Assembly (NCBI GenBank): GCA_019694465.1
Contig: JAIBBV010000005.1
Location: 13,767 to 77,766 of the forward strand
Source: Oligoflexia bacterium
Lineage (GTDB): Bacteria; Bdellovibrionota_C; UBA2361; JAFLCA01
Length of the DNA: 64,000 nt
Reading direction: 5' to 3'
In this document: in pieces, positions 38,200-46,369 of the stretch
How the letters are laid out: each line of letters begins with the position of its first letter
Position numbering within the stretch: the stretch's first letter is position 1
Position numbers and translations under genes: made by a program
The notes under the pieces: model-generated
Seen by the model: the letters and a program-made list of their open reading frames with translations, nothing else
The model's database searches: none
Told to the model about the DNA's origin: nothing

Positions 38200-38874
38200 C
38201 TATGCTCCCAAGAAGATACTGGCTAAGCGTGCGAACATGCTCTGGTTAAGCACGAAGGCCGAAAGGATATCCAGGCCAACTGCACACAAAATTGCGAACA
38301 GCCCCATTGTAGCTGCGGCTAAGCGACGCTGCCCTTCTGCTGTGCGCACCAAGCCCCAAGTGATGGAGAAGCTCCACAGTCCGTTACTAAAGTGGTATGT
38401 CACAGCGATAATACCAAGAACGTACAAGCTCAACACCGCAGGACGATTTAGCATCGACTGCATATCTGCGAAGGTAATCGCAGATCCTTTAATGAACAAG
38501 GCCCAAGCTCTGGTAGTAAGCACGTGCACGGCGATATAAGCAAAAGCAATTATACCGCTCACGCGCTGAAAAAAATAAGCCCAATTTCTTGCGTAACCGT
38601 AGTTCGCGACATTAGGTCGCGAAGAGGCTGTTATAAACAGTCCAAACACGGCATGAAAAAGGATTGGCAACAGAAGTACCGCAACTTCCATCACGTAAAT
38701 GTAAGGCATCTCCGAGATCTTCAGTACCGTCTGATTAAATGCTTCAGCACCGTGCCGAGCTGACGCGTTCTCAAAAAAATGAAACAACAAGAACCCGCCG
38801 ATCGGAACTATCCCTGTTAGGGAGTGCAACCTACGCAACAGGAAATACCAACCTGTTTCAACCTTCTCCGTCAC
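38200..38874 (-). CDS. sdhC: Succinate dehydrogenase cytochrome b558 subunit (single-subunit, type B anchor)
   Basis: RRLHSLTGIVPIG, FHAVFG, FQRVSG, AVHV, YHFSNGLWSFSITWG. Confidence 0.93.
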   Translation of the reverse strand: MTEKVETGWYFLLRRLHSLTGIVPIGGFLLFHFFENASARHGAEAFNQTVLKISEMPYIYVMEVAVLLLPILFHAVFGLFITASSRPNVANYGYARNWAYFFQRVSGIIAFAYIAVHVLTTRAWALFIKGSAITFADMQSMLNRPAVLSLYVLGIIAVTYHFSNGLWSFSITWGLVRTAEGQRRLAAATMGLFAILCAVGLDILSAFVLNQSMFARLASIFLGA

Positions 38875-38882
38875 GCCGCCTC

Positions 38883-39809
38883 CTACAAGATAGATATTAC
38901 TGAACGCACGCTGCTCACGCTCTTTTCAAGCTGTCCCTTCTCCTGAGCAGATAGTTCAATCTCAATGACTTTCTCTACGCCGCCGGCGCCAAGTATTACT
39001 GGAACGCCTAAATAGATGCCCTTAACTCCATATTCACCGTTACAGTACGCAGCAACTGGCATCAACTTCTTTTTGTCGTGCAGGTAGGCCTCAGCCATTA
39101 GGATTGCCGACGCGGCAGGCGAGTAAAATGCCGAGCCAGTCTTAAGCAGCGCCACCACTTCTCCGCCTGAGCCTCGCACGCGCTTCTCAATTGCGTCGAG
39201 CTTCTCTTTGGCCATCATGCGCTCAATTGGAATACCACCACAGGATGTATATGAACGCACTGGCACCATGTCATCGCCATGGCCGCCCAAAACGAATGCC
39301 GATACAGAAGTAGTAGAGACCCTTAAGTCTTCGGCTAAATGTGCCTGGTAGCGCGCAGTGTCAAGCACACCGGCCATTCCGCATACGCGAGCAGCTGGGA
39401 AGCCAGTCACTTGTTGCATCAAGTAAGTCATCACATCAAGCGGATTGGTAATCACGATAACGAAAGCTTTAGGGGCATTCTTCTTGATTCCCTCGCCTAC
39501 CTTGCGCACGATGTCGGCGTTAGTCTTAACCAAGTCATCACGGCTCATGCCTGGTTTACGTGGTATGCCGGAGGTAACGATACAAACGTCGGCTCCCGCG
39601 ATATCTTCGATAGCGTTAGTGCCCTTAATATTGAAGTCGAGACCAAACACTGGACCAACATGGGTTAGATCGAGCGCCTTACCCTGCGGCATTCCTTCGA
39701 CCACGTCATACAGGACTACATCTCCAAGCCCTCGCAAGCCCGCCAGCAAAGCTAGGGTTCCACCAATTTGACCTGCACCGATAAGGGCAATCTTCTTTCG
39801 ACTACTCAT
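38883..39809 (-). CDS. mdh: Malate dehydrogenase (LDH-like)
   Basis: [30 protein letters not shown]; precedes sdhC. Confidence 0.97.
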
Positions 39810-40942
39810 GGTTTTTTATCTCCATCAACACCTGAAACTTTATCTGTACCTGTTTTTACCGCTGAACTAAGGTTCGGGCTAGCCTTAACCTGGTTCGCCT
39901 CAATAAGGCCAAGTTGGGCAATTAGGTCATTATAATCAGTGCGCTTAACGTCTATGGCGCCATTTCCAGAGTGTTCACCAACTACAAAATAACGCGGTCC
40001 AGCGCTCATAAGCTGCTTGGACAACTCAAGCCGGAGCAAAGCCTCACCGCCTGGCCCTGCAAGCGCGTTAACCTGCTCAAGCAATCCTTCCACTTCAGCC
40101 TTACCCTGTGCGGCGATAGAAAGTGCCTCATTAACCTTAGCCTGATAATAGCCATCCCCACGCAGCGTGGCCTGCTTCTTAAAGCCCTGCGCCTCTGCTA
40201 CTTGACGATTCACGACCGCTACGGCGTTATTAAGCTCTTGCAGCTTTTTAGCCTTAATAGTCGCAATGCGCGACTTCTCTCTTCCGGTATCCTCTCGAAG
40301 CTTCTGAATTTCAGTTAGTTTATCCTGGTAGCTGCTATCGATGGTTCCGTCAGGCAGCACACGCTCAAAGCGATATCCGTCCAGGGCAACACCCACAATC
40401 TCAATTCCGTAACGTTGCAAGCGCGAGCGCATGGAGTCACGCGCACGATCGATGGCTTCATAGCGCGACTTGTCATTTAGAAACTTTGAGGTCTCGAGTT
40501 CGTTCATTGAGGTCCTGATATCGGCGCGACCTATCGCTACTATCAAGGCGCGAACCGCAGCGTCATCAACAGCTCCTTCGCTAATTAATTTGGCTAACTT
40601 ATCCGCTTCGGGCAACACTCGATAACGGATAGTAACTCCCAGAGCAACCTCATTCCCATCTAGCGCTCTGGTGTAAACAAAATCGCTAGCGACCTTGCCA
40701 CCTGAATCAACGCTGTGTGCGCCCCAAGAGATATCTTTCACCGACACATCGAATCTATAGATTGAGTCCCACGGCATCACCAATGTAGTCTCGCCTGGAG
40801 AAACCACATGACTTGAAATTCCACCCAGAGCAAACGGAGGTAGACGCCGAAAACGTACCCCCACTTCAGTTGGCTTCATGGTTTGGCATCCACAAAGCGC
40901 CAAAAGAGAAATAGCTGCTAGCGCCGTTCTAAGTGCCTTCAT
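39806..40942 (-). CDS. SPFH/band-7 domain protein with lipobox
   Basis: [19 protein letters not shown] signal II; SPFH-like core ([19 protein letters not shown]), coiled coil with AQG/AAQGKAE; ATGA overlaps on both sides. Confidence 0.8.
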
Positions 40943-42111
40943 TTGCGATCGACCCCCAGTCTTTTGATCCAACGCTGCATGTCAAAGGGGTCTGGGTCGC
41001 TCACAATTCCACCTTTTAGAGTGGAAAGCAGCGGCGCCATCTCGCGTGCAACAAATATCTGAGCACCGGCCGCTTGGGCCAGTGCACCTGCGCGCTGCCG
41101 ATCGACCTCCGCTTTAGCTTTCGCGACTAGCAAATCAGCTTCAGCTTTTTTCTTTGCCTCATACAATTCACCCTCAGAGCGAATAACTTTTGCCTGGTTT
41201 TCGCCTTCCACCAGCTTAGTTTGGATCTGGGCGTCCGCTTCGGCAGCAGCCTGCTCCAAGTCTGCTTGGGCCTTGGCCAAATCGCTAGCAGCCTCATTGA
41301 GCCGCTCTTCCTGCACCTGCAAGTTTTTCTGGAAAATCGCATTGTCTATGCGTTCAGCTTGATATGTGAAGCGTCTAAGCAAAATAGCCTCAAGCAATAT
41401 ACCATCTCTGGTAAGTATCTTGTTGGCGTGGTCAAGCGCTTCTTTAACCTGCTCTTCTCGTTTGTCAGGATCATAGAAATCAGATGTGCTAAGTCGCCCC
41501 AGCGTGCGCTTCAACTGATCGTCCACCGTTCTGCGAATATGGTTATTCCAACGATCTGCGCTTAGCCCAATATTAGTTAGTAGCTCGGCTGGACCACCAT
41601 GCGCTTCACCCACTTCGGCGGGCTGATCAAAAAAGCGACTAACGACCGAGAGGTCAACGTCAATAATCGCGCGGTCGGCGGTTTGAATTTCGAGAGGGCC
41701 CACTCCTTCGAGCCCTTCTTCGCTGCGTCTTTGCATATTAAAAAGCTGCAAAGTAACGGGAACCAGGTGAATCGTGGAGTAAGAAGGAATTACAATATGG
41801 TAACCAGGCTTTAGGCCACGATCTCCAAACCCCTGTGCCGGTCCAACCATTACCTGTCGCACCCCCATCATTCCCGGCGGAACAACAGCGCCGAAAAAGT
41901 ACAAGCCAACCCCAATCAACAAAGCCAACGAGAGCAGTGGCAGGAATCCGCTCAGAATACCGCCAGACTCAGAAATGAGCCTCAAGGCAAAAATAGGCCC
42001 GCGAGGAGCTTGCGCTGAAGAGCGGCCAAATTCCGGAACAGCAACTCTTAGATTGCGATAACAAACTTGAGAAACCATATGCTGCGGCAATGTATCACGA
42101 AAATGCCGCAA
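40939..42111 (-). CDS. SPFH/band-7 domain membrane protein (HflK/C-like)
   Basis: N-terminal TM, VVPPGMMGVRQ, LKPGYH, IQTADRAIIDVDLSV, Ala/Glu-rich coiled coil. Start uncertain. Confidence 0.82.
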   Translation of the reverse strand: MRHFRDTLPQHMVSQVCYRNLRVAVPEFGRSSAQAPRGPIFALRLISESGGILSGFLPLLSLALLIGVGLYFFGAVVPPGMMGVRQVMVGPAQGFGDRGLKPGYHIVIPSYSTIHLVPVTLQLFNMQRRSEEGLEGVGPLEIQTADRAIIDVDLSVVSRFFDQPAEVGEAHGGPAELLTNIGLSADRWNNHIRRTVDDQLKRTLGRLSTSDFYDPDKREEQVKEALDHANKILTRDGILLEAILLRRFTYQAERIDNAIFQKNLQVQEERLNEAASDLAKAQADLEQAAAEADAQIQTKLVEGENQAKVIRSEGELYEAKKKAEADLLVAKAKAEVDRQRAGALAQAAGAQIFVAREMAPLLSTLKGGIVSDPDPFDMQRWIKRLGVDRK

Positions 42112-42147: not shown

Positions 42148-43128
42148 TTAGAGCGCAGTATCTAGCTTTTTGGCCAGCTCTAGGAACCGAGCCGGGTTTT
42201 TAGGCTGACGATCAACAAGCACCTCAAAATGCAGATGGGGCCCAGTGGAACGCCCTGTGGAGCCAGCCAAGCCAATGACATCGCCTCGGGCGATCTTCTG
42301 ACCTGGTCTAACCAGCGCCTTCGACAAATGAGCGTAGCGAGTGATAATGCGGTTATTGTGGCGGACATCAACCCTTAGCCCATATGTCGAATTCCAGCCG
42401 ACCTCAGCGACCTCTCCAAAGGCTGAGGAAAAAACCTTGGCGCCGTAAGGAAGTGAAAAATCAATTCCCTCGTGCATACGCAGGCTATGCTCAAAGGGAG
42501 AAACACGAACACCAAAAAACGAGCTAACATCGCCCACAGCGGGCAGCCCAAAAGGGATGACTTTAATCGCCTCTATTAGCTTATCCAATAGGGCCACTAG
42601 CTCAGGATCATTAGCTGGTGTCTGACCAGACCACGACGCCATCGGACTATCGTCACCGGAATCTGCACTTGGAAGCCCATCACAGGAACTGCCTTTGCAA
42701 TCAATTTCAGCTCCCCCGACCCCTTCTTTCTTATCTGGCTTAACAGCCCCACGTTTATCAAATACGCCCAAGGATGTCGCTGATTCTACGAGGCCAGCCA
42801 ACTGCTCAAGTCGCAGCTTTATGTCTGCCTCGTAATTAGCTGCCTTGTTAGTTGTATGCTGCAGGTCTTGTACCTGGGCCCTAAGCGACTGGGTGCGCTC
42901 TAAAAGGTTATTCCTTTCAGAGGTTAACTTACGAAGAGAGAAGTAGGTTTCGACACGGGATATCTGCAGTCTGGCATAGTCGCCCAGCATGTATACAAAT
43001 ACACCCCCGAGCATCATTGCGGCAACAAAAGCTGCAATGACGCGGCGCAATGTGAGACGGTACTTACGGACCTTGCCCTCATTAGGGGGCACGATCCACA
43101 AGCAGTAATCCTTATTGAGGAGCTTCAT
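42148..43128 (-). CDS. M23 family metallopeptidase
   Basis: N-terminal TM plus coiled coil; HEGIDF, YAHL, GRSTGPHLHFEV. Start moved to MKLLNK (43128). Confidence 0.93.
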   Translation of the reverse strand: MKLLNKDYCLWIVPPNEGKVRKYRLTLRRVIAAFVAAMMLGGVFVYMLGDYARLQISRVETYFSLRKLTSERNNLLERTQSLRAQVQDLQHTTNKAANYEADIKLRLEQLAGLVESATSLGVFDKRGAVKPDKKEGVGGAEIDCKGSSCDGLPSADSGDDSPMASWSGQTPANDPELVALLDKLIEAIKVIPFGLPAVGDVSSFFGVRVSPFEHSLRMHEGIDFSLPYGAKVFSSAFGEVAEVGWNSTYGLRVDVRHNNRIITRYAHLSKALVRPGQKIARGDVIGLAGSTGRSTGPHLHFEVLVDRQPKNPARFLELAKKLDTAL

Positions 43129-43316
43129 ACACTTTAAACTTCTTAAACCAACCTCGACATGCCTGACAACAGTACTGCGAGCCTCCGAATGTGCACCATC
43201 TGGAGCACAGGCGGAAACCACGACAAGCCCCCCTCGTTTTACCCTGACAACAAACACAAAGGCTACGAGATCTGCCCGTCAGAATCAAATGCCAACGACT
43301 ATAGCCAAAAAGCGTT

Positions 43317-45874: not shown

Positions 45875-46369
45875 CTACTTCTTCTGCTTCTCTACGCTTG
45901 TCCCAGCGGGTGGAGTCTGAAGCACTTCTCCTATCCGGGCGCGAGCCCTTTCGCGTGTAATAAACTCCCTTCCGGACACAGCCGCATTCAAACGTCCCGG
46001 ACCAGAGGTTACTTCATCGTAAACACTCAGCCAATTCTTACGCTCCTCTTCCGGGAGAGCATTAGATAGCCGGACCTGCTCGTAGCCACCAAGACTAAGA
46101 GCTGCATTACCTAAAACATATAGCGCATACGGCGGGAACACAAAGATTGAGCCGGCTGTTAGTGCAGTTTCACCAATGCCATTTCCATAGAGCCAGTTTT
46201 GACCAACTCGGTCTAGTAACTCTTGAGACTCCTGCGGGGACAGTTGGCGATTAGCCAGCTGCCCAATTGAGGGGGTCTCACGGGCGCTGTCCTGGGCTGG
46301 AGTGCAAGCCACCAACTGTACGAATAGGCCAAATATAAGACCTGCCCTATAGCATGCGCTCTGAATCAT
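45875..46369 (-). CDS. Hypothetical lipoprotein
   Basis: Lipobox LVAC after a hydrophobic stretch; 8 nt upstream of nadK. Confidence 0.7.
   Translation of the reverse strand: MIQSACYRAGLIFGLFVQLVACTPAQDSARETPSIGQLANRQLSPQESQELLDRVGQNWLYGNGIGETALTAGSIFVFPPYALYVLGNAALSLGGYEQVRLSNALPEEERKNWLSVYDEVTSGPGRLNAAVSGREFITRERARARIGEVLQTPPAGTSVEKQKK

Follow-up and report, generated by a model that had tools for sequence, protein, structure and literature searches.

The SPFH proteins HflK and HflC (SPFH3a/b) of Escherichia coli form a cage that modulates FtsH (PDB 7vhp, 7wi3, and 9cz2), other members include the mitochondrial prohibitins PHB1/PHB2 with SLP2, and bacterial stomatins are encoded with NfeD, as in QmcA-NfeD (YbbK-YbbJ). 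The SPFH domains of HflK and HflC are periplasmic; QmcA faces the cytoplasm (PMC2636767). In E. coli, aerobic respiration depends on HflKC indirectly, through the stability of IspG, and the paper describing this makes no mention of succinate dehydrogenase (SDH), malate dehydrogenase (MDH), or the tricarboxylic acid (TCA) cycle (PMC12005517). It thus provides a precedent for a link between SPFH proteins and respiration in which no TCA enzyme is physically bound. What bacterial SPFH cages do physiologically is still mostly obscure. A pair of adjacent SPFH genes, here termed SPFH1 and SPFH2, lies directly ahead of TCA genes in a 64,000-nucleotide (nt) stretch of the genome of an Oligoflexia bacterium (assembly GCA_019694465.1, contig JAIBBV010000005.1, positions 13,767-77,766, forward strand); the whole of this stretch is referred to as the window. 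It is probable, although far from certain, that the pair forms a lineage-specific HflK/C-like SPFH cage that is co-transcribed with the TCA genes and serves as a general membrane-domain or quality-control device, and not as a dedicated partner of SDH.

Family placement, anchors, and predicted topology

The two genes and their junctions are arranged as follows:

40939..42111, minus strand: SPFH1, Pfam Band_7 at 62.6 bits against a cut-off of 23.6 (6e-17)
39806..40942, minus strand: SPFH2, 378 amino acids, Pfam Band_7 at 54.6 bits against a cut-off of 23.6 (1.8e-14)
40939..40942, minus strand: stop of SPFH1 and start of SPFH2 overlapping as ATGA, read directly from the minus-strand sequence
39806..39809, minus strand: stop of SPFH2 and start of mdh overlapping as ATGA, read in the same way

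Both products passed the gathering score of Band_7 (PF01145), and both are genuine SPFH proteins, as an earlier reading of the window made from its letters alone (the sequence-only reading) had proposed. The two overlaps are also exactly as it described them. On the minus strand GATCGCAAATGAAGGCA, the SPFH1 stop TGA (40941-40939) overlaps the SPFH2 ATG (40942-40940), and in AAAAAACCATGAGTAGT the SPFH2 stop TGA (39808-39806) overlaps the mdh ATG (39809-39807); a GGAG motif resembling a Shine-Dalgarno sequence lies within SPFH2, about 10 nt 5' of the mdh start. Its remark that neither ftsH nor nfeD stands beside the pair extends well beyond the window, since a scan of 72 loci (910 kb) found no homologue of either gene closer than 8 kb to the pair. 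The single ftsH of the window's own genome is located on another contig, and its two NfeD genes lie beside two other stomatin-like genes on contigs C70 and C5. A stomatin-NfeD module was therefore ruled out.

The predicted structures (AlphaFold2 monomer models) of SPFH1 and SPFH2 both showed a membrane-proximal SPFH α/β domain and a long single helix, as in the cage-forming members of the superfamily. Foldseek assigned a probability of 1.00 to both models against HflK/C, prohibitin, stomatin, erlin, and flotillin, and MVP was also matched. The top match of SPFH1 was HflC (7vhq_G, 4e-15), and the top matches of SPFH2, at about 1e-12, were prohibitin, HflK/C, stomatin, and erlin. Searches of PDB sequences with the single proteins and with an SPFH2 profile retrieved no close solved relative, and a profile of 59 SPFH1 sequences matched E. 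coli HflC over its full length, transmembrane (TM) helix included (E=8e-6). The families were then compared profile to profile by hhalign with true HflK and HflC sequences of the window's phylum. The SPFH2 family aligned with HflK at 98% (E=3e-13) and with HflC at 94% (E=1.4e-7), the SPFH1 family aligned with HflC at 96% (E=2e-9) and with HflK at 95% (E=3.5e-8), and the two families aligned with one another at 99.6% (E=1.5e-24). SPFH1 and SPFH2 are thus closest to each other, and they constitute a separate HflK/C-like paralogous pair.

Neither protein matched the HflK model TIGR01933 or the HflC model TIGR01932 at E<=0.01. True HflK (284-285 bits) and true HflC (255-278 bits) were detected in two genomes of the same phylum (G008 and G081), which carry a bona fide hflK-hflC alongside an SPFH1-SPFH2-mdh locus. 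This coexistence ruled out the possibility that the pair is the divergent HflK/C orthologue of the lineage. Canonical HflK exceeded the cut-off in only 23 of the 124 genomes of the phylum and was absent from the window's own genome.

The SPFH1-SPFH2 family is rare, narrow, and lineage-specific. Every homologue belonged to an uncultured metagenome-assembled genome (MAG) that carries the label Bdellovibrionota, Bdellovibrionales, Oligoflexia, or "Deltaproteobacteria". In GTDB, the window falls in an uncultured, Bdellovibrionota-like phylum of only 124 species genomes in one class, and an SPFH2 homologue was present in 104 of these at E<=1e-10. An exhaustive HMMER search of 1.84 billion representatives recovered 141 clusters at E<=1e-30 and 536 at E<=1e-10. 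A narrow literature search found neither an SPFH-mdh/sdh operon nor an SPFH pair with a lipoprotein protomer, and to that extent an HflK/C-like SPFH pair with a lipoprotein protomer in a TCA operon appears to be previously undescribed.

The two proteins carry different membrane anchors. The start of SPFH1 is uncertain: the longest open reading frame (ORF) begins at TTG 42111, the gene caller placed the start at ATG 42078 (379 amino acids), and a later start is also possible. The 379-residue form contains a short basic N-terminal tail, a TM helix at about residues 41-62, the SPFH domain, a helix of about 90 residues (242-334), and a C-terminal tail of low confidence; the mean pLDDT (predicted local distance difference test) of the model was 83.6. 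A single N-terminal TM helix was found in 102 of 104 SPFH1 homologues, with 232 lysine or arginine residues before the helix vs. 126 after it, and this helix leads straight into the first SPFH strand. SPFH2 starts with a signal-peptide segment of 19 residues, of which the lipobox Cys is residue 19. This Cys is invariant or nearly so, and a lipobox was recognized in essentially all 116 full-length SPFH2 homologues; at +2, 39 of these carry Asp and 38 carry Gln. In E. coli, it is Asp at this position that signals retention in the inner membrane. The SPFH domain of SPFH2 begins about 7 residues past Cys19; after it come a helix spanning residues 204-295 (about 90 residues) and a disordered tail with a conserved D-x-N-x-L motif (mean pLDDT 83.6, with low confidence in the C-terminal tail). 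Judged by these signals, SPFH2 is a predicted lipoprotein across the family. The SPFH2 lipobox and the N-in TM helix of SPFH1 with its lysine/arginine bias predict that both SPFH domains should lie at the inner membrane on its periplasmic side, the arrangement found in HflK/C. SPFH2 members without Asp at +2 might be located in the outer membrane.

Several other SPFH genes were encountered during the survey. A second, more distant clade (26-30% identity) also consists of TM-plus-lipoprotein SPFH pairs, which stand alone and are not linked to mdh (loci L102 on G070:C266, L105 on G049:C35, and L108 on a JGI metagenome contig); in G070 such a pair coexists with a pair of the main type. The window's own genome encodes a 686-residue SPFH protein in the region C41:16655-17419, in whose N-terminal half about four tandem repeats of about 70 residues (…GPQI..LPGTYRINP…) precede Band_7, an unusual flotillin/YqiK-like architecture. 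In the same genome, a stomatin-like gene is split across the end of C70 and the start of C65, with NfeD upstream on C70. The overlap is nearly identical, and the two contigs probably join or represent a collapsed duplicate.

Linkage to mdh-sucCD and its dissociation

The pair is flanked in the window by the following genes:

38883..39809, minus strand: mdh, NAD-dependent malate dehydrogenase, 308 amino acids (TIGR01763, 397 bits; PRK06223, 425 bits)
38200-38874, minus strand: sdhC, b558-type cytochrome b (NCBIfam/Pfam family search)
36420-38198, minus strand: sdhA (confirmed by Pfam/NCBIfam)
35589-36398, minus strand: sdhB (confirmed by Pfam/NCBIfam)
34397-35560, minus strand: sucC, succinyl-CoA synthetase (translation; tblastn synteny)
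33511-34389, minus strand: sucD, succinyl-CoA synthetase (translation; tblastn synteny)
42148..43257, minus strand: membrane-anchored M23 (LytM, MepM/ShyA-like) peptidoglycan endopeptidase (Pfam Peptidase_M23, 2e-30)

The order SPFH1-SPFH2-mdh was conserved in 25 of 29 loci of relatives (1.5-kb flanks), in about 41 of 51 loci of genome contigs (8-kb flanks), and in about 10 of 18 loci from other orders of the class, and SPFH1 and SPFH2 were adjacent in almost all loci. A tally of mdh against SPFH2 was made from genome-wide coordinates that were paired by hand from two tables; its smaller classes are approximate, and every tally of genomes is subject to the completeness of the MAGs and to breaks between contigs. 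The mdh gene was immediately downstream of SPFH2 on the same strand in 70 of the 104 pair-bearing genomes, which span many families and more than one order. It was 1-5.4 kb from SPFH2 in 7 genomes, unlinked in about 13, missing from the genome in about 7, and undecidable at contig ends in about 7. The gap between the SPFH2 stop and the mdh start was mostly -17 to +85 nt among relatives, with overlaps in several families and the identical -4 overlap in three loci (L037, L043, and L050). SPFH1 heads a unit SPFH1-SPFH2-mdh-sucC-sucD in several loci, where its upstream neighbour is divergently oriented. Usually sucCD follows mdh directly, and mdh and sucCD are the constant partners of the pair. 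The linkage of the pair to mdh-sucCD is real and ancient, and is probably operonic.

The sdhCAB genes belong to the cluster in a minority of loci, where they stand in the mdh-sucC interval, behind sucD, or, in a single locus, upstream of SPFH1. In this last case (L041:242-1018), sdhB lies directly upstream of SPFH1 in a third sdh arrangement, sdh…-SPFH1-SPFH2-mdh-sucCD. At the other end of the cluster, a small ORF of 136-143 amino acids is conserved after sucD in six loci (L077, L062, L096, L099, L103, and L089), and in the window a 628-residue ORF (31568-33454, plus strand) converges on the operon end; its product has the look of a Kup/HAK-type K+ transporter, as judged from the sequence and not by a family search.

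The sequence-only reading went further, and explained the locus as a dedicated scaffold or chaperone for SDH or a TCA metabolon, that is, a bacterial analogue of the respiratory roles of prohibitin/SLP2. It proposed to check this by surveying the neighbourhoods of the homologues for a link to sdh, and a linkage confined to this genome, with homologues beside ftsH or nfeD, would have refuted it. The linkage to a TCA cluster is conserved (70 of 104 genomes) and phylum-wide, not peculiar to this genome, and the homologues do not sit with ftsH or nfeD, so that this refutation did not arise. The scaffold explanation can draw on this linkage, on the presence of sdhCAB inside or beside the cluster in the window's own family and several others (with L041 as the case of sdhB next to SPFH1), and on SdhC, an integral membrane protein that could fit inside a cage. 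In addition, SPFH proteins influence respiration in mitochondria and in E. coli (PMC12005517). However, sdh lies outside the cluster in most loci, and it is mdh-sucCD that is constant. The pair and the TCA genes also occur without each other, with absence defined by thresholds of E<=1e-60 for mdh, E<=1e-30 for sdhA, and E<=1e-40 for sucC. Family f8 (G011, G074, G029, and G040) and genome G032 have kept the pair, and no mdh, sdhA, or sucC was detected in them at these thresholds. The genomes of f8 and G032 are small (1.5-2.5 Mb), and three of those of f8 (G011, G074, and G029) are 91-93% complete; the absence of the three genes suggests that the TCA cycle was lost in a sub-lineage of the phylum. 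In the other direction, family f21 (94-97% complete), G117, and families f22, f23, and f34 have kept mdh and sdhA and lack the pair; sucC was also present in the pair-less f21, G117, G042, and G045, and f21, G117, and others retain an mdh-sdh-suc cluster.

Where mdh is not at the junction, the neighbours of the pair are unrelated housekeeping genes (a SpoU/TrmL-like methyltransferase, Lon, L20, aro genes, and RlmN), and a search of the loci without mdh downstream for an alternative constant neighbour found these only. MDH, SucCD, and SdhAB are cytoplasmic, whereas the SPFH domains are predicted to be periplasmic. The two-way dissociation, the unrelated neighbours in the absence of mdh, and this difference of compartment argue against an obligate scaffold, and SDH, MDH, and SucCD are thus argued to have no obligate or dedicated partner in the pair. 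What stands of the sequence-only reading is a real, heteromeric-looking SPFH pair linked to a TCA cluster; its specific scaffold, tempting as it was, is set aside as very unlikely, and the result corrects it. A looser link, by co-expression or by shared membrane clients, may exist.

Other observations limit what the gene order says about a functional tie between the pair and the TCA genes. The pair lies in a block of 12 co-directional genes on the minus strand, running from 46369 to 33511 with small gaps according to the ORFs of the window, in the order of a putative lipoprotein of 164 amino acids, nadK, recN, the M23 peptidase, SPFH1, SPFH2, mdh, sdhC, sdhA, sdhB, sucC, and sucD. The gaps range from -4 to 59 nt; with ATG 42078 as the SPFH1 start, the upper limit becomes 69 nt. 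Unrelated genes (nadK, recN, and the M23 peptidase) are packed with equally tiny gaps, that between nadK and recN being 3 nt, and a crude count found the -4 overlap in about 12% of the co-directional long-ORF pairs of the genome. For these reasons the ATGA overlaps say little and are, on their own, weak evidence. A scan for promoters and terminators detected fewer sites than in shuffled sequences, and operon boundaries could therefore not be drawn. Conserved adjacency can persist without a functional link, as between nadK and recN in the same block.

The tight packing of nadK-recN, the common ATGA overlaps, the dissociation in both directions, and the housekeeping neighbours all fit neutral operon hitch-hiking. 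In such a case, a general second HflK/C-like device, or a pair of unrelated function, landed between the promoter and mdh in an ancestor and stays there since mdh-sucCD need that promoter. Hitch-hiking is possible but rather unlikely. The junction has survived in 70 genomes despite reshuffled flanks (M23, trmL, or other genes upstream; sdh or suc downstream), the SPFH2-mdh adjacency is more stable than the M23-SPFH1 junction, and such retention usually reflects selection for co-expression.

The upstream gene offers another candidate partner. The membrane-anchored M23 endopeptidase, whose score against the NCBIfam MepM-like model was under the cut-off, could be corralled or regulated by a periplasmic cage as HflK/C regulates FtsH. 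Its gene lies on the same strand directly upstream of SPFH1, at a distance of 36-69 nt, it occupies this position in 17 of 51 loci of the 8-kb survey and in the very divergent L106, and the site of action of both products would be the periplasm or the inner membrane. On the other hand, the largest genus (g11) and many other loci lack it upstream of SPFH1 and have a divergent gene there instead. It usually travels as a block with recN-nadK, and the upstream neighbour is less constant than the mdh junction. We know of no precedent for an SPFH cage that regulates an M23 endopeptidase, and such a partnership seems scarcely likely. The 164-residue ORF at the head of this block (45875-46369, minus strand; x164-nadK-recN-M23) matched nothing in Pfam or NCBIfam and has an N-terminus resembling a lipobox (…FVQLVAC); of the 51 loci in the 8-kb survey, about 11 contain it at the corresponding place by tblastn.

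Proposed mode of action

Under the preferred reading, that of a general HflK/C-like device, SPFH1 and SPFH2 would be the two protomers of a hetero-oligomeric cage on the periplasmic face of the inner membrane. Such a cage is inferred from the adjacency of the genes, from their paralogy, and by analogy with known systems. SPFH1 would be anchored by its N-in TM helix, and SPFH2 by an N-terminal lipid on the lipobox Cys, often with Asp at +2. Each protomer would contribute an SPFH domain apposed to the membrane, a wall formed by one helix of about 90 residues, and a cap at the C-terminus, which are the parts of the HflK/C, prohibitin, stomatin, and erlin cages. In the ancestor of the phylum, the pair may have become the promoter-proximal part of an operon SPFH1-SPFH2-mdh-(sdhCAB)-sucCD, and in most descendants its synthesis would be tied to TCA and respiratory expression by co-transcription, often with overlapping or nearly overlapping frames. 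The cage would then fence off a patch of membrane and control the stability or the turnover of inner-membrane proteins. Its clients are possibly respiratory complexes and its route is possibly FtsH, and the demand for it would follow respiratory activity.

This rare and sharply bounded SPFH subfamily combines a lipoprotein protomer, a phylum-wide position at the head of a central-metabolism operon, and natural separations of the pair from the TCA genes. It therefore offers a concrete setting in which the tuning of SPFH cages to respiratory load can be examined, a possibility already suggested for HflKC of E. coli and for the mitochondrial prohibitins.

Comparison with known SPFH systems

The stomatin/QmcA-NfeD modules share the SPFH fold with the pair, and QmcA was among the fold matches. 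Unlike these modules, the pair has no NfeD partner, and the canonical NfeD-stomatin modules of the window's own genome are located elsewhere.

Mitochondrial PHB1/PHB2 and SLP2 resemble the pair in the heteromeric SPFH cage fold (Foldseek, 7e-13), although the cage of the pair is so far a predicted one. In both cases the cage faces, or would face, the compartment outside the matrix or cytoplasm of an energy-transducing membrane, and both are genetically associated with respiratory metabolism, which for the pair means gene order only. In contrast, there is no detectable specific kinship in sequence (E=0.06 between prohibitin and the SPFH1 profile, and no match with SPFH2), and the SPFH1-SPFH2 pair persists without SDH or TCA genes. 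A stronger version of this parallel would make the pair a periplasm-facing bacterial counterpart of prohibitin/SLP2, in which a mixed TM- and lipid-anchored cage is hard-wired into the TCA operon, surrounds and stabilizes inner-membrane respiratory complexes including SDH across the phylum, and is kept for other membrane clients in reduced lineages that lack the TCA cycle. This version is considered unlikely.

HflK/HflC differ from the pair in that one protomer of the pair, SPFH2, would be a lipoprotein and not TM-anchored, and in operon context, which is mdh-sucCD for the pair and not hfq-hflX. Nevertheless, both systems consist of two adjacent paralogous SPFH genes, and their products would share an N-terminal membrane anchor with an SPFH domain that is predicted to be periplasmic in SPFH1 and SPFH2, as well as the succession of SPFH domain, long wall helix, and C-terminal cap. 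Among the systems compared, HflK/HflC are the best match of the pair in both sequence profile and fold.

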